Assembly (NCBI GenBank): GCA_017400345.1
Contig: JAFPTG010000003.1
Location: 5,813 to 69,812, forward strand
DNA: 64,000 bases
Direction of reading: 5' to 3'
DNA from: Oscillospiraceae bacterium
GTDB taxonomy: Bacteria > Bacillota > Clostridia > Oscillospirales > Ruminococcaceae
Within the stretch, counting starts at the first letter, position 1; each line of letters starts with the position of its first letter. A program made the translations under genes and the position numbers. Positions 674 to 60,312 of this stretch are shown here, in pieces. The notes below the pieces were generated by a model. That model was not told the DNA's origin and ran no database searches. It saw nothing but the letters and a program-made list of their open reading frames with translations.

Positions 674-883
674 TTTCCATTCATCCTACTCAATTGTTGA
701 TATTTATTATTTATTATACATCTTATTTTTAATTTTTACAAGAGTAATTGTACTATTTTTGCAGGTTTGTGAAGGTTTTAAATTGAAATTATCTGAAGTT
801 GCATACAAATATACAACTTTAAGATTAATTTCAGATTAAAATTGAACATTACTGTTCAAAAAAATAAAAGGAGAGAGTTAAAA

Positions 884-1231
884 ATGAGAGTTTCTTTTAC
901 AGGAATTGGAGAAACAGTGGTAACGTTTGAATCTGATAAAAAACTTGAAGTAGGAACGTTAGTTAACGTTGTTGAAAACGGCAAAGTGGCTGAAGCTAAA
1001 AAAAACGAGAAGTTTGTTGGAATTGTTGTGAATGCAACTGAACACGAAGCAAGTGTGCAGATCAAAGGCTACATTAAAACAAAATTTGAAGGCACAATTG
1101 AATATAATGCTCTGGGCTGTTGTAATCTGTGCTTGGGAGAGGAAGGGAAGTTAAAGTTAAGTGAAAAAGGACGTGAAGTTTTATTATTAGATATTAATAG
1201 TGAAACTAATGAAATTGGGATTTTTATGTAA
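884..1231 (+). CDS. Small hypothetical protein heading a phage-like capsid module (possible DUF2190-type head decoration protein)
   Basis: Track ORF 842-1231. The preferred start is ATG 884 (MRVSFTG...), 6 nt after AAAGGAGAGAG. It is 115 aa and looks beta-rich (EVGTLVNVVENGKVAEA...KFVGIVVNA). It lies immediately upstream of the prohead protease and capsid genes. The functional call is weak. Confidence 0.4.
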   Translation: MRVSFTGIGETVVTFESDKKLEVGTLVNVVENGKVAEAKKNEKFVGIVVNATEHEASVQIKGYIKTKFEGTIEYNALGCCNLCLGEEGKLKLSEKGREVLLLDINSETNEIGIFM

Positions 1232-1245
1232 AAGAGGAAACATTT

Positions 1246-2175
1246 ATGGAGAATAATGTAATAACACAAAATATTGATGCTGATTTAGAACTAATTAATA
1301 AACTTACTCGCAGACCGCTTAAAGCAGAAGAGGTGTATACATTTAATGTGGTACTGTGCGACAATGACCTTGACCGTGATTTTGAAGTATTTGATTTAAA
1401 ATGCTTATATGAATTAAAAGAACTGTTTTTAGGAAAGACGGGCATATTTGATCATGACCCAAAAGGGAGTAATCAAACATCTCGTATATTTTTTACAGAA
1501 GTTGTGCGAGATCCAATAAAAAGAACAAAGCTGGGGCAAGATTATTATATGTTGAAAGCTAAGGCCTATATGATTAGAAATGAAAAGAATAAAGATTTAA
1601 TAGAGGAGATAGATGGCGGAATAAAGAAAGAAGTGAGTATTGGCTGTAGCGTTTCTTGCGTTAAATGTTCGATATGTGGATGCAATACAAAAAAAGAAAA
1701 ATGTGAGCACGTGTTAGGAAATAAATATATTGTAAACGGAGAAGAACAATTGTGCTATCATGTTTTAGAAAGTGCAAATGACGCTTATGAATGGTCTTTT
1801 GTAGCAGTGCCAGCTCAAAGGCAGGCGGGTGTGGTAAAAAGTATAAGAAAGAAGTTTACAGATTCGTACGAAACTAACAATTTCGGCAACGAAGACCGAA
1901 CGCAGTTAGATAAGTACTTGGAATATATTTCACAACTAGAATCAGTTATTGGCGAATTTGAAGAGGAACTAAGATCGCAGGTAAAAAAATCATTTGCAGT
2001 TTTACAGCCAGAGTTAAAACTTTCTACAATAAAAAACATGATAGAAAAGTTAGATATTACAGAATTAAAAGAACTGAAAAAAGTACAAGACGAAAAAATG
2101 GGCAAGAATGTTATAATCCAGGCAGAGGGGCTAGAAACCTCAAAAGATGCAGATTTAACCAAGTTTTCAATTTAA
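1246..2175 (+). CDS. HK97-family (S78) prohead serine protease with a Cys-cluster insertion and a coiled-coil, scaffold-like C-terminal extension
   Basis: 309 aa with RBS AAGAGGAAA. It shows the S78 pattern: His in GIFDHDPKG, Ser in KKEVSIGCSV, and a distal strand YEWSFVAVPAQRQAGV. There is an inserted CVKCSICGC...KCEH cluster. The last ~110 aa are heptad-like (YLEYISQLESVIGEFEEELRSQ...ELKELKKVQDEK). Confidence 0.7.
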   Translation: MENNVITQNIDADLELINKLTRRPLKAEEVYTFNVVLCDNDLDRDFEVFDLKCLYELKELFLGKTGIFDHDPKGSNQTSRIFFTEVVRDPIKRTKLGQDYYMLKAKAYMIRNEKNKDLIEEIDGGIKKEVSIGCSVSCVKCSICGCNTKKEKCEHVLGNKYIVNGEEQLCYHVLESANDAYEWSFVAVPAQRQAGVVKSIRKKFTDSYETNNFGNEDRTQLDKYLEYISQLESVIGEFEEELRSQVKKSFAVLQPELKLSTIKNMIEKLDITELKELKKVQDEKMGKNVIIQAEGLETSKDADLTKFSI

Positions 2176-2195: not shown

Positions 2196-3194
2196 ATGGA
2201 GAGTTATAAAAGTGTAAAATTAGATAAAGATATGTATAGAGTGGCAAATAAAAGCTTTTCGGAAGTTTTAGAAGGCTATGATTGTTCAAGCAACTACAGA
2301 GAAAGTTCACTTGCAAATATAGATGCATTTCAGCGTCAGTTAAAGCGGTTCGATATAAGAGTAGGACGGAACAATTCAGATGAAGTAGAGAAATTTTTTA
2401 GAAGTGCGCAAACGGCCACATTATTTCCAGAATATGTTCTGCGTGCGGTAAAATCTGGCACAGAGGTAGTTAATGTACTTAACGAAATAATTGCGGTTAG
2501 AACAAAAATAGATAGTATGGATTACCGTGCGATATATTTTGAACAAGATGATGAACCTACAGTTATTGGGGAAGGAGCATCGATCCCTAGCGTTAATATA
2601 AAGTTAAAAGAAAATTTAGTGACATTAAAAAAGACAGGTCGGATGTTGGTAGTAGATTATGAAACTATTAAGAATAGAAAGATAGAAGTATTCACAATTG
2701 CATTAAAACAGATTGGTTATAAAATTGCGGAACAACAGCTAAAAAGTGCAATAGATGTTTTGATGAATGGTGATGGTAATTTTAAGCCAGATGTAAAAAC
2801 AATAAGTGGCGGTTTAAAGTTCGAAAATTTAATAGATTTATGGAACAGCTTTAGTGAATATAAAATGAACACAGTGTTAATTTCTCCTAACATGGCAAAA
2901 AAGATGCTGGGCCTTAAAGAAATTTTTAATCCATACAACGGGTTAAAGTTTGAATTAACAGGTCAGGTAGATACTCTTATGGGAGCTCGATTGCTAAAAT
3001 CTCAATTTGTACCAGATGATGTAATTATTGCTCTTGATAAAAACTTTGCTTTAGAAATGGTATGTTGCGGCGATATTCAAGTTGACTATGATAAATTAAT
3101 CGATAGACAGCTCAAACGTTCGACAATTACTTCAACTTATGGCTTTACCAGAATTTGTGAAGACGCAGTTAAGATTTTAAAATTTTCAGAGTAG
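2196..3194 (+). CDS. HK97-fold phage major capsid protein
   Basis: 332 aa with RBS AAAGGAGGA. It directly follows the prohead protease. The C-terminal third (GARLLKSQFVPDDVIIALDKNFALEMVCCGDIQVDYDKL...TITSTYGFTRICEDAVKILKF) has the pattern shared by HK97-type capsid and encapsulin shells. Confidence 0.65.
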   Translation: MESYKSVKLDKDMYRVANKSFSEVLEGYDCSSNYRESSLANIDAFQRQLKRFDIRVGRNNSDEVEKFFRSAQTATLFPEYVLRAVKSGTEVVNVLNEIIAVRTKIDSMDYRAIYFEQDDEPTVIGEGASIPSVNIKLKENLVTLKKTGRMLVVDYETIKNRKIEVFTIALKQIGYKIAEQQLKSAIDVLMNGDGNFKPDVKTISGGLKFENLIDLWNSFSEYKMNTVLISPNMAKKMLGLKEIFNPYNGLKFELTGQVDTLMGARLLKSQFVPDDVIIALDKNFALEMVCCGDIQVDYDKLIDRQLKRSTITSTYGFTRICEDAVKILKFSE

Positions 3195-3207
3195 TAAAAT
3201 AAACATA

Positions 3208-3234
3208 AAAATCCCCCTTAATAGGGGATTTTTT
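3208..3234 (+). terminator. Rho-independent terminator after the capsid gene
   Basis: AAAATCCCC / GGGGATTTT 9-bp stem, 7-nt loop, followed by a T-run. Confidence 0.7.
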
Positions 3235-3474
3235 ACATACACAAAAGACTAAAGTTTTTTTATTTATAGCTAGTTTTATGGGATACAACCCTTAAATAAA
3301 ATTTATAATATAACAACAAATAAATTCAAACATGATAATATTAATTACAAGATTGGTAAATTTATATAAATAAATCAACACGAATTACATAATTGACAAG
3401 CCAATTCCAATATGTTAGCATTAATATAAACATACAATTTAGCACAAAAGTACATAAAGGGAGCAGAGATTCTA

Positions 3475-3960
3475 ATGGAAGCAGGAGAGCTAGCAGTTAT
3501 AACTAAAGCAAAAGCTGTTTGCAATTATATTATAACAGTTACAGATAAATCCCCTAAAAAGTTTCGTTTTACTTTAATTGGCCGTATGCAAAATTATGCA
3601 CTAGATATTATTGAAGGAATGATTATGGCAAATGAAGTTTACGTTACGGAAAAGGGATTAGGCGTTAATATAGAAGCATTAAAAGAGAGGCAAAAATTAC
3701 AAAGGAATGTACTTACAAACATAAAACTATTAGCATATGTATCGCAACTTTCTATGGAACAAAAATGCATATTGCCAAAACAATATGAGCAAATTACAGA
3801 AAAGCTCTATACATGCCAAAACCTCTTGGGTGCCTGGATTAAAAGCGATTTAAAGATAACATCGGTATATCACACATTTTTAATGTGTAGATATATAGGG
3901 ATATGGTTGCATGGTTCTGGTTGCGTTCTCCAAACGCGGGCAATAGCAACAATGCGCTGA
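3475..3960 (+). CDS. avd: DGR accessory variability determinant (Avd; four-helix-bundle / 23S rRNA-IVS protein family)
   Basis: RBS AAAGGGAG. It has family-typical segments SPKKFRFTLIGRMQNYALDIIEGMIMANEVY and QNLLGAWIKSD. It sits directly upstream of a TR and a DGR-type RT. The ORF reads on into the TR before reaching a stop, so the last ~30 aa are probably not part of the conserved fold. Confidence 0.8.
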   Translation: MEAGELAVITKAKAVCNYIITVTDKSPKKFRFTLIGRMQNYALDIIEGMIMANEVYVTEKGLGVNIEALKERQKLQRNVLTNIKLLAYVSQLSMEQKCILPKQYEQITEKLYTCQNLLGAWIKSDLKITSVYHTFLMCRYIGIWLHGSGCVLQTRAIATMR

Positions 3961-4034
3961 ATGCTAATACTGGCAACTATGTGAATAACAATAACGTCCA
4001 CAATAGCAACAGGTGCGTCCCCGCATGGCCTTAA
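3906..4034 (+). repeat. DGR template repeat (TR), non-translated
   Basis: In the frame offset from avd it reads VAWFWLRSPNAGNSNNALNANTGNYVNNNNVHNSNRCVPAWP*. That is 13 AAY Asn codons within 26 codons, ending in a GC-rich GCGTCCCCGC (IMH*-like) segment. It lies between avd and the RT. A perfect 9-bp hairpin follows at 4043-4064 (GATGTTTTT-AAGG-AAAAACATC). The boundaries are approximate. Confidence 0.75.
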
Positions 4035-4322
4035 CGTCTGATGATGTTTTTAAGGAAAAACATCCGGTGAAGCTAATCATGAATTTGCTTCTTAACCTTA
4101 AGGCAAAGGAACCATATTCCTTTTTGACTGCAAACAAAACTAAATTTATGTGGATTTGATTATCGGTTTTGTTAAGCAGCAGAAAAATACATACCGCCGG
4201 AAGGAAAAATGTATAAAGGAAATACTACTTAGAAGGATACTTTTGGACTGTGGCGCAAGCCTCGGCGGCTAGCGGAAATAGTAAAATAGGAAATAGTTAA
4301 AAATTAAGGGGGAGTATTACAA

Positions 4323-5381
4323 TTGTATGAAAAATTAACTGATTTTGCGAGTATTTATCAGGCATATAAAAAAACAGCAAAAGGAAAAAACATGATAAAA
4401 ACGAGGTAGTACGTTATGAAACAAATTTACATATGCAATTATGGCGTCTAAAAGAAAGAATAGAAAATAAGACTATTAAAATTGGTGGTTACCATAAATT
4501 TATGGTGTTTGATCCTAAAAAACGAGAGATCCAAGCATTAAGCTTTTCAGACAGAGTATTTCAACACCTGCTGTGTGATAAAGTGCTGATGCCATATTTT
4601 GAACCCAAATTAATTTATGATAATGCTGCGTGCAGAAAGAACAAAGGCACGCACTTTGCTCAAAACCGTTTCACTGGGTTTTTAAGAGATCACTATAAAA
4701 AGTATGGTAGTAAAGGATACATTCTAAAATATGATGTCAAAGGATATTTTAATTCTATACATCATAAAGTATTAAAAGAAAAACTTAAAAATTTTCCAGA
4801 CAAAGAGATTAAAGAGCTTCTCTATTATATTATAGATAGCTACGAAAGTGAACCAGAACGAGGTATACCCATGGGGAACCAATCTAATCAATGGTTTGCA
4901 CTTTACTATCTAGATCGCCTTGATAGAACTATAAAAGAGAAGTTGCATATCAAATATTATATCAGATATATGGATGATGGAGTGCTATTACACCAAGACA
5001 AAGGATATTTAAAAGAATGCCTTGTAGTTATAAAGGAACAAGCGACCAAAGACAAACTTGAATTTAATAAAAAAACAGAGATTTTTCCATTATGCCAAAG
5101 AGTAGATTTTTTAGGCTTCCACTTTTATCTTAACAGATACTGGAAAAGTCATAAAAAAGCTTAGAACATCTAATAAAAAACGGTTTAAAAGACGTCTCAA
5201 GCAATTTGAAAGACAATATGCAAAAGGGAAGATAACTTACGAAGAAATAAAAAGAAGTCTTGCCAGCTACCAAGGCCATCTAAAGCACGGTCATACATAT
5301 AAACTCAGAAAACATGTAATTTCTAATATAAAATTCAAGCAGAAAACAAACAATAATGAAGAAATGGGAAATAGCCTTTAA
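4323..5381 (+). pseudogene. DGR-type reverse transcriptase, split into three frame segments by two frameshifts
   Basis: A TTG at 4323 follows AAGGGGGA and starts LYEKLTDFASIYQAYKKTAKGK, which stops at TAG 4407. The central segment is track ORF 4433-5164 and is open from 4370. It contains IPMGNQSNQWFALYY (the DGR SQ-type motif) and YIRYMDDGV. The C-terminal segment returns to the first frame: LTDTGKVIKKLRTSNKKRFKRRLKQF...GHLKHGHTYKLRKH, with its stop at 5379-5381. The shifts lie in the A6 run at 4385-4390 and near 5128-5133. Confidence 0.8.
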
Positions 5382-5396
5382 AAGGGCTATTTTTTA
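5371..5396 (+). terminator. Terminator after the RT
   Basis: ATAGCC..GGCTAT stem overlapping the RT stop codon, followed by TTTTT. Confidence 0.55.
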
Positions 5397-5416: not shown

Positions 5417-5689
5417 CTAAACTCTTGGTTTACCACCGCCTCCAGCACCAATAGAACTGTTAGAAGTACTGCTGCCTTTATTTGCGCTAGAAGACTGACT
5501 ACTGGAACTTTTATTTGTACTAGAAGATTGCTTACTGGTAGTGCTAGACTTGCTGGTTGAAGTATTACTGCTAGAGCCCCCAGCATCTGCACGAGCCAGA
5601 GGAACACCTATACAAACCATTTGGCCACACAACAATACAAATATACTTGTAACTAAATACCCTAAACTCCTTTTACTGTTTTTTAACAT
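5417..5689 (-). CDS. Small secreted Ser/Thr/Asn-rich low-complexity protein
   Basis: 90 aa. AGGAG lies 9 nt upstream of the ATG. The signal-peptide-like N-terminus is MLKNSKRSLGYLVTSIFVLLCGQMVCIGVPLARA. About 55 aa of S/T/N/K-rich sequence follow, ending in GAGGGGKPRV. Confidence 0.55.
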   Translation of the reverse strand: MLKNSKRSLGYLVTSIFVLLCGQMVCIGVPLARADAGGSSSNTSTSKSSTTSKQSSSTNKSSSSQSSSANKGSSTSNSSIGAGGGGKPRV

Positions 5690-43129: not shown

Positions 43130-43211
43130 GCCGATGTGGCGGAATGGCAGACGCAGATGACTCAAAATCATCCGGGAAACCATGGGGGTTCAAGTCCCTT
43201 CATCGGCACCA
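43130..43211 (+). tRNA. tRNA-Leu(CAA): tRNA-Leu (anticodon CAA), CCA encoded
   Basis: GCCGATGTGGCGGAATGGCAGACGC...ACTCAAAATC...long variable arm...GGTTCAAGTCCCTTCATCGGCACCA. The acceptor stem is complementary. Confidence 0.9.
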
Positions 43212-56819: not shown

Positions 56820-56894
56820 TGGTGATCCGTGGGGGAATTGAACCCCCGATACCGCCGTGAAAGGGCGGTGTCTTAACCTCTTGACCAACGGACC
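56820..56894 (-). tRNA. tRNA-Glu(UUC): tRNA-Glu (anticodon UUC), CCA encoded
   Basis: The reverse complement is GGTCCGTTGGTCAAGAGGTTAAGACACCGCCCTTTCACGGCGGTATCGGGGGTTCAATTCCCCCACGGATCACCA, very close to Bacillus tRNA-Glu. Confidence 0.92.
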
Positions 56895-56897
56895 AAA

Positions 56898-56974
56898 TGG
56901 TAGCGGTAGTTGGATTTGAACCAACGACACTCCGGGTATGAACCGAATGCTCTAGCCAACTGAGCTATACCGCC
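56898..56974 (-). tRNA. tRNA-Met(CAU): tRNA-Met (anticodon CAU; elongator type, though Ile2 is not excluded), CCA encoded
   Basis: The reverse complement is GGCGGTATAGCTCAGTTGGCTAGAGCATTCGGTTCATACCCGGAGTGTCGTTGGTTCAAATCCAACTACCGCTACCA. Confidence 0.88.
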
Positions 56975-57405: not shown

Positions 57406-60312
57406 ATGAGTGGACTGAAGACTGAATATGAAGTTGAGAAAATCTTCATTGAACAGCTTGATAATGAACAGGGCTATTCATATATTGATATGGCAAACTA
57501 CGATGATGTGCTTGCCAATTTCCGTGTGCAGTTTTGTAAGGTAAACGCAAAGGCTCTTATTGAAGCAAAGGGTGTTGCGGAGTTGTCCGATAGCGAGTTC
57601 GACAAGATTTTGCTTCGTCTGGACAATCATACGATTTATGAGTCTGCAAAGATTCTCCGTGAGAAATGGGTTCTTGAACTGGACAACGGCAAGACGATTT
57701 ATGCAGAGTTCCTGACTTCCGATATGGACAGGAACATTTATCAGGTGACACATCAGGTCACAATGGATAAGGCTCACAAGGACGATGTGGAGTACAAAAA
57801 CCGCTATGATGTGACCGTGCTTATCAATGGTCTTCCTTTGGTACAAATCGAGCTGAAGCGTTCAGGTGTAGAGCTGAATGAGGCTATCAATCAAATCAAC
57901 CGTTACCGTACCTATTCTTTCAAGGGCTTATTCCGCTACATTCAGGTGTTCGTTGTATCAAACAGTGTGCAGACAAAATACTTTGCAAATGCCAATGAGC
58001 GCAGAGCTGATGGCACGGAACAGCTTATCCTGAAATCCCTTGCTTTTTACTGGACGGACAGAAACAATGTGCGTATCAATCGCCTCGGAGAGTTTACGCA
58101 GGACTTCTTTGATAAATTCTCTCTGACCGAATTGCTTACACGCTTTATGGTTATCAAGGAGACTGAGCCTGTTATTATGGTTATGCGCCCCTATCAGATT
58201 TACGCTGTCAAAGAGTCTATGGAGCGTATTCTCGGCAGTAATCTGAACGGCTTTGTATTCCATACCACAGGTTCGGGCAAGACCCTCACAAGCTATAAAC
58301 TTGCAAGTCTGCTCCGTGACAATCCGCTGATTGAAAAGGTGTTCTTCCTTATCGACCGTAAGGATTTGGACGATCAGACTGTTGACGAGTACAACAGTTT
58401 TGAACAGGGCTGCGTGGACAACACAGACAGCACAGCAACACTTGTGAACGACCTGACCGATTTGGATAAAACACTTATCATCACGACCATTCAGAAAATG
58501 GCGAACGCTGTCAAAAACAAGAAATATGAAGATATAATGGCTCTGCTTGCTGATAAGAAGTGCGTGTTCATCATTGATGAATGCCACCGTTCACAGTTCG
58601 GAAAAATGCACGGCGACATCAAAAGACATTTTCATAACGGTAATTACATCGGCTTCACGGGAACGCCTATCTTCAAAGAGAATAAGGGTGGAAACAGCAG
58701 AACAACGGCAGATATGTTTTTCTCTGGAACGCTCGACCCTTGTATTCACCGCTATATGATTAAGGAAGCTATCGCTGACGGAAATGTTCTCCGCTTTTCG
58801 GTAGAGTATATGCGTTCAATCAGTGCGGACAGCATTCCGATTCAGGGTTTTGACCCCGAAAGAATAGATGACCCCGATTACTGCAAGAGCAAGAACATTG
58901 ACCTTGACGAGCTGTACCACAATCCGCAGCGTATCTCTATGATTGCCGACCATATCCTTTCTACGCTTGATTCTCACATCAAACCGACTGGAAAAGATGT
59001 TTACACGGCTCTGTTCGCTGTCGATAAGATACAGACCCTTATGGACTACTATCACGCTTTCAAGGAGAAGAATGACAAGGGATATAGAATCTGTGCTATC
59101 TTCACATTCCAACCGAATGAAGACCTCTCCGAAGGACAGGACGAACATTCTGCAAGGTATTTGCAGGAATGTATGGACGATTATAACGCTATGTTCGGCA
59201 CGAGTTTTGACCTCACGACATTCGATGCGTACCGCAAGGATATTGCGAAGCGATTGAAGCAGAAGGATATTCCGCAAGTCGATTTGCTTATCGTAGTCGA
59301 TATGTTCCTCACGGGCTTTGACAGCAAGCCTACGAATACGCTGTTCCTTGACAAGAACCTTATCTATCATTCTCTGGTGCAGGCGTACAGTCGTACAAAC
59401 CGTATCGACAAGCCTACAAAGCAGTTCGGACAGATAGTGACCTACCGTAACATCAAGAAGGCACAGGACGCTGCTTTGAAACTGTTCAGCGGCAGCGGAA
59501 ATCCGAATGATTATCTGCTTGAAAGCTACGAATACTATGTGACCGAATATCGAAAGCAGGCAGAAGCTATCCGTAAGATCTGCCCGACCGCCGCAGATTG
59601 CGGAAACCTTATCGAAGAAGACAAGCAGAAGGAATTTATCATCATTTTCAGAATGCTTGCAAAGGCTCTGGCTACGATGAAGACCTTCAGCAAGTTCGAT
59701 TGGGCTGACCTCGACCTCTTTATGGACGAAGAAGAATACACGGAATATAAGTCGTGGTATCTGACCTTCTATGACGAGCAGAAAGCAAAGGCAAAGGCAG
59801 GCGTAAAGACTATCCTTGCAGACATTGACTTCAATATTGAGCTTGTCCGTACCGACAAAATCAATGTGGTCTATGTGCTGAATCTGCTGAAAGAGATAAA
59901 CCGTAAGAACAAGGAAGAAATGCAGAAAAGCATTGATCTTATCCTGCGTGAGATAGACCGTTCCGACAACGAAAAAATGCGCTACAAGTCGGGCATTATG
60001 AAAGCATTTATCAATTCCCGATTTTTTGACCTTGACCCTGAAGAAGATATTGTCAAGGACTATGAGCAGTACGAAAAGGAAGTTATGGAGAATGATATCA
60101 CTGAATTTGCAGAGGCAAACGGTATCACTCCTGACCTTGTGCTTTCTATCCTGAATGAATACTTTGTTGACGAACGCAGTATCACAAAGAACAAGATTCG
60201 TGAGCGTCTTGCAGATATGCAGCTTCCGCTTTTGAAGCAGACAAAGCTGATAAATGCGATTTTAGCGTTCATCAAGGATATGTACGATAAATTCACCGCT
60301 GAAGGAGTGTAA
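57406..60312 (+). CDS. hsdR: Type I restriction enzyme R subunit
   Basis: PD-(D/E)xK region DVTVLINGLPLVQIELKR and SF2 motifs HTTGSGKT and IDECHRSQ, 968 aa. Confidence 0.93.
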   Translation: MSGLKTEYEVEKIFIEQLDNEQGYSYIDMANYDDVLANFRVQFCKVNAKALIEAKGVAELSDSEFDKILLRLDNHTIYESAKILREKWVLELDNGKTIYAEFLTSDMDRNIYQVTHQVTMDKAHKDDVEYKNRYDVTVLINGLPLVQIELKRSGVELNEAINQINRYRTYSFKGLFRYIQVFVVSNSVQTKYFANANERRADGTEQLILKSLAFYWTDRNNVRINRLGEFTQDFFDKFSLTELLTRFMVIKETEPVIMVMRPYQIYAVKESMERILGSNLNGFVFHTTGSGKTLTSYKLASLLRDNPLIEKVFFLIDRKDLDDQTVDEYNSFEQGCVDNTDSTATLVNDLTDLDKTLIITTIQKMANAVKNKKYEDIMALLADKKCVFIIDECHRSQFGKMHGDIKRHFHNGNYIGFTGTPIFKENKGGNSRTTADMFFSGTLDPCIHRYMIKEAIADGNVLRFSVEYMRSISADSIPIQGFDPERIDDPDYCKSKNIDLDELYHNPQRISMIADHILSTLDSHIKPTGKDVYTALFAVDKIQTLMDYYHAFKEKNDKGYRICAIFTFQPNEDLSEGQDEHSARYLQECMDDYNAMFGTSFDLTTFDAYRKDIAKRLKQKDIPQVDLLIVVDMFLTGFDSKPTNTLFLDKNLIYHSLVQAYSRTNRIDKPTKQFGQIVTYRNIKKAQDAALKLFSGSGNPNDYLLESYEYYVTEYRKQAEAIRKICPTAADCGNLIEEDKQKEFIIIFRMLAKALATMKTFSKFDWADLDLFMDEEEYTEYKSWYLTFYDEQKAKAKAGVKTILADIDFNIELVRTDKINVVYVLNLLKEINRKNKEEMQKSIDLILREIDRSDNEKMRYKSGIMKAFINSRFFDLDPEEDIVKDYEQYEKEVMENDITEFAEANGITPDLVLSILNEYFVDERSITKNKIRERLADMQLPLLKQTKLINAILAFIKDMYDKFTAEGV

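Follow-up and report, generated by a model that had tools for sequence, protein, structure and literature searches.

A chromosomal DGR cassette from gut Oscillospiraceae, with variable repeats probably at remote loci

The DGR of BPP-1 is ordered mtd(VR)-avd-TR-brt, with the variable repeat (VR), the counterpart of the template repeat (TR), at the C-terminus of the target and a hairpin within 24 bp of the VR, and DGR-type reverse transcriptases (RTs) carry a GxxxSQ motif. Guo et al. 2011 (PMC3240598) showed that the IMH and the hairpin downstream of the VR suffice to direct the DGR to a heterologous gene. In the survey of Wu et al. 2018 (PMC5758913), 45 of 372 DGRs had non-adjacent targets and 10 had targets more than 100 kb away; remote targets were found almost only in DGRs without phage association, two phage-associated DGRs had a non-adjacent target only, and avd-TR-brt was reported to function in trans from a plasmid. 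DGRs with remote targets are thus already documented, as are DUF6273/tentaclin targets (in gut phages and Faecalibacterium prophages), DUF6273 being a domain that resembles the C-lec fold (PMC10743442).

Here we analyse the window, a stretch of 64,000 nucleotides in which an earlier note had recognised a TR with no VR or target gene in cis. That note left three options: a remote target diversified in trans, an orphan cassette whose target had been deleted, or some other use of the TR cDNA. Our conclusion, reached by comparing sequences from many strains, is that the locus is very probably the avd-TR-RT cassette of a chromosomal DGR whose VRs lie at remote loci.

The cassette and its lesions in the window strain

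The cassette and the genes that precede it consist of the following features.

842..1231 (+), small phage virion structural protein gene (phrog_4588, E 2.4e-18)
1246..2175 (+), phage prohead protease/scaffold-like gene (phrog_16951, E 1e-91; weak head-maturation-protease match)
2196..3194 (+), HK97-type major capsid protein gene (Pfam Phage_capsid_4, 44.1 bits; phrog_3922, E 5e-82)
3207..3233 (bidirectional), hairpin resembling an intrinsic terminator, downstream of the capsid gene
3393..3421 (+), promoter-like site for the cassette (TTGACA, 17 nt, TG-TAGCAT) in the AT-rich spacer
3475..3960 (+), mutant allele of the accessory gene avd (PHROG 'Avd protein of DGR', E 4e-20)
3912..4027 (+), TR, 116 nt with 34 adenines, 84-88% identical to remote VRs, with sharp boundaries
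4028..4324 (+), TR-to-RT spacer, 297 nt, conserved at 94% across lineages (adjacent intergenic DNA, 73%)
4323..5381 (+), DGR reverse transcriptase gene, a pseudogene in the window strain (Pfam RVT_1; phrog_1423, E 2e-111)
5369..5392 (unstranded), terminator-like hairpin immediately past the RT stop, at the site of the target gene in relatives

Read from left to right, the window thus presents three head genes, a terminator, a spacer with the promoter-like site, avd, TR, a second spacer, RT and a second terminator, followed by a convergent small ORF and then uvrA; the proteins of this region are MBQ3875945 to MBQ3875949 in the NCBI record. Both the terminator that the earlier note had placed at 3208-3234 (3207-3233 by our reading) and the AT-rich spacer preceding avd are present. 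The promoter-like site falls in a part of the intergenic DNA that is 93% conserved, while the stretch just upstream of it, after the capsid terminator, is 73% conserved.

We find the TR to be genuine. It is flanked by avd and RT, 32 of its 34 adenines fall at codon positions 1 and 2, and in the frame starting at 3912 it translates as WFWLRSPNAGNSNNALNANTGNYVNNNNVHNSNRCVPA. Its existence as first proposed therefore stands, while the limits then given, 3906-4034, are replaced by 3912-4027. A 57-aa minus-strand ORF overlapping the TR (3964-4137) was treated as a spurious translation of the repeat, as were ORFs reading through the TRs of other records (P0178, P0180 and similar). The TR sequence is invariant across strains of the window lineage and 95% identical to that of a sister lineage, whose MAG came from goat cecum. 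Six positions separate the TRs of the two lineages and four of these six substitutions are synonymous in the target reading frame, which fits constraint acting via the target protein.

The spacer between TR and RT is presumably part of the DGR RNA, as in the BPP-1 model; an Rfam search of the cassette matched no known RNA family. Three tRNA genes (43130-43208, 56823-56974) are the sole Rfam matches in the window. Between RT and uvrA lies a small Ser/Thr-rich ORF with a signal-peptide-like N-terminus (5417-5689, minus strand), which is 87, 90 or 96 aa long depending on the strain and whose exact sequence in the window is absent from the protein collection. Further right, the window carries a gene for a type I restriction endonuclease R subunit (57406-60312, MBQ3875991.1) and additional ORFs to about 63200.

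The avd gene, which adjoins the TR as expected of a DGR, scores 38.8 bits against Pfam bAvd (cut-off 40) and 54.5 bits (E 1.2e-14) against NCBIfam DivGenRetAVD (cut-off 80). Alignment with a 98.4%-identical strain and with intact 351-aa RT alleles reveals lesions in both genes of the window, which the earlier note had overlooked. The avd gene lacks its final 5 codons and its stop through an 11-bp deletion located between 3853 and 3854, so that the ORF continues out of frame into the TR and is 161 aa long rather than the normal 131 aa. In the RT gene, the A run at 4385-4390 is two residues longer and a further A has been inserted at 5132-5133; these two insertions break the protein into three frames, of which the longest surviving ORF is 4433-5164 (243 aa), and the hallmark GNQSSQ reads GNQSNQ. 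The intact alleles P0001 and P0121 have YMDD and MGNQSSQ; with these YxDD and GxxxSQ motifs and its profile match, the enzyme is a DGR-type RT. Its best matches in the phage database are the RTs of phages reported with DGRs (nd12, Faecalibacterium phages).

We consider it very unlikely that the frameshifts and the avd deletion are assembly errors and that the cassette is in truth intact and active. While both RT insertions add adenines, one in an A run and the other by doubling a single A, the 243-aa RT fragment and the 161-aa avd allele recur unchanged in three independent assemblies made from other samples (L009, L010, L011), as well as in the NCBI MAG. Furthermore, an 11-bp deletion is atypical of sequencing error, and the RT also has a substitution in the conserved GxxxSQ motif. 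The avd deletion and the two RT frameshifts suggest that the cassette of the window strain is at present disabled, and with these lesions in both genes the VR of this strain is probably frozen. The window strain is, on these alleles, apparently a member of a sub-lineage with recent cassette loss.

Truncated RT ORFs of varied kinds also occur in other strains (P0139, P0146, P0137, P0122, P0130, P0132), with starts at Met37, Met60 or Met183, one internal frameshift pair and one C-terminal cut, as do 94-aa Avd ORFs (P0166, P0171). This variety suggests repeated independent loss of the cassette, although some of the truncations may be contig-end artefacts. In another DGR, the 131-aa ORF P0189 starts with ~35 aa of Avd-like sequence that continue without a frame break into a TR-like peptide; that cassette seems to have undergone an internal deletion, and the ORF recalls the read-through of the window avd into the TR.

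Given that no target lies in cis, and that the RT has weak matches to Drt3a, retron and group II models, the TR cDNA might be thought to serve something other than mutagenic homing, such as a retron- or DRT-like defence. We regard this as extremely unlikely. The scores lie far under the curated cut-offs (69.9 against 200 bits for Drt3a, 40.5 against 235 bits for retron St85 and 96 against 300 bits for another model), an Avd gene is present, the TR has an AAY-codon design, all but two of its 34 adenines falling at codon positions 1 and 2, the between-lineage substitutions are mostly synonymous in the target frame (4/6), and matching VRs exist. By its scores and by the existence of TR/VR pairs, the RT falls outside the retron and DRT defence RTs, and the other use of the cDNA envisaged by the earlier note finds no support.

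The damage in the window strain stands beside signs of constraint in the species. Comparing L001 with L012, which represent lineages ~90% identical in DNA (dS 0.3-0.7), we obtain dN/dS values of 0.072 for avd and 0.046 for the intact RT alleles. Those of the head genes are 0.094 (small virion protein), 0.058 (protease/scaffold) and 0.044 (capsid), and those of ATP synthase, MerR and PBP1A are 0.02-0.07. Conservation reaches 93-95% in TR, spacer and promoter-proximal DNA, against 73% just past the capsid terminator. The low ratios of avd and RT indicate that selection maintains the system, and the DGR is evidently kept by purifying selection across the two lineages. Taken with the conservation of the non-coding parts and the synonymous TR changes, these ratios argue that the cassette is functional in the species.

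Variable repeats at remote loci

The statement that the window holds no VR was borne out. In a gapless scan that ignored TR adenines, the best candidate in the window still had 51 mismatches at 92 non-adenine positions; blastn-short (word size 7) of the TR against the window returned only the TR itself; and tblastn of the target proteins of related DGRs against the window gave nothing better than E about 1. The same holds past the left edge. Near-identical strains (L001, L009-L011) and the sister lineage (L012-L021) have contigs that reach ~8-10 kb further left, through an ATP synthase operon, MerR and PBP1A, and on them a known VR matches the TR only; no prophage is found in this ~8-10 kb flank. 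A degenerate adenine-masked pattern has no second match besides the TR on a 204-kb contig of the sister lineage. The distance from cassette to target is thus bounded only, at more than ~58 kb rightward or more than ~8-10 kb leftward, and the cassette has no adjoining target, although an adjoining target is usual (but not defining) for DGRs.

The nearest relatives of the RT, which are 66-69% identical and come from Lachnospiraceae and other uncultured gut bacteria, show a different layout. Their order is avd-TR-RT-target, and the VR is found where a DUF6273-like domain ends, 0.5-0.7 kb inside the gene that follows RT, with one extra copy ~1.5 kb in. Their TR/VR differences are overwhelmingly at adenines. 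The elements that carry these relatives are mobilisable, having relaxase or serine recombinase genes, and are without head genes. From this arrangement the expected site of a target is downstream of RT. The earlier expectation of a VR just upstream of avd therefore does not fit this RT clade, and the placement of the VR in the relatives also means that the search for ORFs with a C-terminal W.W.RSP...RCVP ending was the wrong test.

One explanation for a terminator and host genes at the site where relatives carry their target is that a target once present after RT has been deleted, leaving avd-TR-RT as a decaying remnant with nothing to act on. The inactivating lesions of the window strain and the truncated RT ORFs of other strains would agree with this. 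However, avd and RT have dN/dS of 0.05-0.07 across ~90%-identical lineages, the TR and spacer are conserved, and there are remote cognate VRs with adenine-only differences and lineage-matched non-adenine positions. We therefore think an orphan cassette highly unlikely; as a description of the species it is wrong, since cognate VRs exist, while in the window strain itself the cassette is probably disabled.

These cognate VRs came to light when the 47-aa TR peptide was used as the query of an exhaustive HMMER search, which recovered proteins equal to that peptide save at adenine-containing codons (for example P0179, WFWLRSPGVGGSYDALNAKTGNYVNNTYVHNSDRCVPA). They bear out the first of the original options, a remote target diversified in trans: the VRs differ from the TR in an adenine-restricted manner and lie at other chromosomal loci of the same species group, namely the following two.

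dnaJ locus: hrcA-grpE-dnaK-dnaJ, target, followed on the opposite strand by an APC permease gene (L038, L040, L041, L042, L048)
Second locus: ileS-lgt-nth, target, followed on the opposite strand by a phage portal gene (L039, L047, sister lineage)

Over the 116-nt repeat, we counted the differences between each of the seven VRs and the TR of its own lineage.

L040, window-type TR: 13 differences, 13 at TR adenines (Fisher p 1.7e-8)
L041, window-type TR: 13 differences, 12 at TR adenines
L042, window-type TR: 13 differences, 11 at TR adenines
L038, window-type TR: 14 differences, 10 at TR adenines (4 non-adenine)
L048, sister-lineage TR: 18 differences, 18 at TR adenines (p 8e-12)
L047, sister-lineage TR: 11 differences, 10 at TR adenines
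L039, sister-lineage TR: 15 differences, 14 at TR adenines

The TR thus has partners from which it differs mainly at its adenines, as the TR/VR pair of a DGR does. Homology between the two starts at TGGTTC and ends just past CCCCGC, and within it the VRs agree with the TR of their own lineage at the non-adenine positions that separate the two lineages. The targets of L040 and L041 are 99.2% identical, and 16 of their 23 differing sites lie within the VR, 15 of these 16 at TR adenines. Diversification of the VR is inferred here from such differences between assemblies. Frameshifts interrupt several of the target ORFs as assembled (L038, L039, L042) and may be errors or decay.

Several co-occurrences tie these targets to the cassette. 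In MAG GCA_051887375.1 (locus tags ACI4PI_), capsid, avd and RT are on one contig and the VR-bearing P0181 is on another. In co-assembly SAMEA3663267, the degenerate adenine-masked pattern matches exactly three contigs, one with a TR and two with a VR; the cassette is 99.8% identical to L012 and both target ORFs are intact. Sample SRR30827656 yielded both L009, a window-type cassette 99.8% identical to the window, and L042, which has the dnaJ-locus VR and an HrcA identical to MBQ3876299 of the window MAG; L010 and L043 were likewise recovered together from sample ERZ27280436. In the window MAG, the permease (MBQ3876294) and HrcA (MBQ3876299) are on the same 21,988-bp contig with four accessions between them, and by accession arithmetic we take the one that is not GrpE, DnaK or DnaJ, and that falls between DnaJ and the permease, to be the target. 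The link between a target and the exact genome of the window rests on this arithmetic and on co-occurrence in samples.

In RGIG1955, the GTDB representative of the sister lineage, which has an intact cassette, the pattern (in a version that matches all five VRs known by then) matches the TR only and no VR; the target may be unassembled, unbinned or altered at a non-adenine position. A first adenine-masked pattern, made from the window TR alone, matched nothing in GTDB representatives, JGI metagenomes or IMG/VR, because those collections lack the window lineage and the TR of the sister lineage differs at four of the non-adenine positions covered.

Since the comparison rests on MAGs and contigs rather than complete genomes, one might argue that the remote VRs are served by another DGR, the window-type cassette being a redundant or silent copy. 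We judge this very unlikely. A search with the adenine-masked pattern detects a single TR, that of the window-type cassette, both across the entire RGIG1955 MAG and in the co-assembly that yielded two VRs, and the VRs track the lineage-specific substitutions of the window-type TR. The sequenced flanks of all target loci contain no RT or avd gene.

Target proteins, candidate recognition elements and the phage head genes

The targets are proteins of roughly 730-915 aa with a signal peptide, an N-terminal DUF6273 domain that ends at the VR, and Ig-like repeats, so that the VR falls in the first third to half of the gene. In L042 the VR is at the C-terminal end of the DUF6273 match (32.9 bits, cut-off 23.5), while the matches in P0198 and P0192 are weaker. 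In P0198 the domain spans aa 207-342 and is followed by matches to Big_13, Invasin_D3 and MBG, most of them below cut-off. The VR thus lies, as in other DGRs, within a ligand-binding (C-type-lectin-like) domain of the target ORF, the C-lec likeness of DUF6273 being taken from PMC10743442. By their domain architecture we predict the targets to be secreted, tentaclin-like surface proteins.

The TR and VR have in common a GC-rich 3' end, GGTGCGTCCCCGC. About 38 nt past every VR, including those of the relatives, is a stem of 6-8 bp (GCTGCTG/CAGCAGC) with a loop of ~4 nt. The loop differs between loci and between relatives, and the stem sequence also codes for a conserved ASAAAPAA peptide; beyond the TR-like segment the flank of the target conserves the peptide LSSVIFASAA. 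By analogy with BPP-1, the shared 3' end and the hairpin are candidate recognition elements. In strains with intact genes, a transcript spanning the TR and spacer would be copied by an RT/Avd complex with misincorporation opposite adenines, and the cDNA would then replace the 116-nt VR in one or two distant genes, guided there by GGTGCGTCCCCGC and by the conserved hairpin downstream. This pathway is modelled on BPP-1.

Two further observations concern the targets. Firstly, the dnaJ-locus target alleles (L042 9521-11179 compared with L040 450-3152 and L038 9328-12034) have only ~50% protein identity, while the flanking genes of the same strains are ~97% identical and the VR still matches the TR. 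Such divergence outside the VR points to strong diversifying selection or allele exchange. Secondly, five proteins from Logan contigs (P0195, P0199, P0201, P0202, P0204) change frame exactly at the 5' VR edge, reading …AYEHA|SGSGCVL… in place of …AYEHAR|WFWLRSP…, and the shifted VRs differ among the five. This could reflect trouble in assembling a hypervariable region or imprecise 5' cDNA junctions.

The virion protein gene at 842..1231 is a neighbour of the cassette, as are the protease/scaffold and capsid genes. Homologues of the protease/scaffold gene that are 42-54% identical adjoin a capsid gene in phage contigs. Within ~8-10 kb leftward there is no portal, terminase or tail gene alongside the trio, and the genes checked rightward, from uvrA onward, are host genes. 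With dN/dS of 0.04-0.09, as low as in housekeeping genes, the trio may be domesticated rather than decaying. We tested for a native linkage between capsid and DGR and found none that recurs: in 15 phage contigs with capsid homologues there is no avd or RT nearby, and the elements of the RT relatives are without head genes. Since purifying selection on the head genes is as strong as on avd and RT, and other phage genes of these kinds are missing, there is a slim chance that they work with the retroelement, for example by providing a capsid-like shell for reverse transcription or cDNA handling, in the manner of a bacterial counterpart to a Gag-protease-RT particle; alternatively, the trio is a co-inherited prophage remnant and nothing more.

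At the second locus, the target abuts a phage portal gene (L039 5665-6825, minus strand; L047 12699-13859, minus strand). That portal gene has 66-75% nucleotide likeness to the sequence upstream of the protease gene, at the expected site of a portal gene, in phage contigs that carry a window-like protease and capsid. Judging from this likeness, the cassette and the second target may be two pieces of one broken-up prophage.

Significance and comparison with described DGRs

A 'missing VR' usually reflects a limited window or contig rather than new biology, and surveys that need TR and VR on one contig would label the window cassette incomplete. We propose instead that, in an uncultured gut species of Oscillospiraceae, the cassette acts on one or two surface-protein genes far away from it. 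What is particular here is the combination of no adjacent target, a selectively maintained head-gene trio, one or two remote targets at housekeeping loci, and natural loss-of-function alleles. The last of these offers a natural comparison between close strains that have an intact or a disabled cassette and the same target locus, and metagenomic reads could gauge how fast DGR-driven variation ceases after RT loss.

The locus resembles the BPP-1 DGR (PMC3240598) in having avd, TR and RT, adenine-specific differences, a GC-rich 3' end of TR and VR, and an inverted repeat downstream of the VR. It differs in the spacing of hairpin and VR, here ~38 nt, and in the place of the VR, which falls within the first third to half of the gene. 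With remote-target DGRs of the Treponema denticola type (PMC5758913) it shares a single cassette and VRs far from the RT; unlike them, the window cassette is without any adjacent target and stands beside three phage head genes.

The closest likeness among gut phages is to nd12, whose RT is the joint-best match in the phage database at 45% identity, tied with that of the unannotated contig MT837771.1, and is directly followed by a gene of 579 aa, the length that PMC10743442 gives for nd12_tgt1. The nd4 and nd12 tentaclins (Baykov et al. 2023, PMC10743442) likewise have an N-terminal DUF6273/C-lec domain with the VR, followed by Ig-like domains. In contrast to those phages, the window cassette is chromosomal and has no complete phage around it, and its targets are non-adjacent, lie at housekeeping loci and carry a signal peptide. 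The Faecalibacterium prophage DGRs (PMC11792537) come from a related host family and have DUF6273 targets with the VR at the C-terminal end of that domain and with Ig-like domains; there, however, both the DGRs and their targets reside inside inducible prophages.
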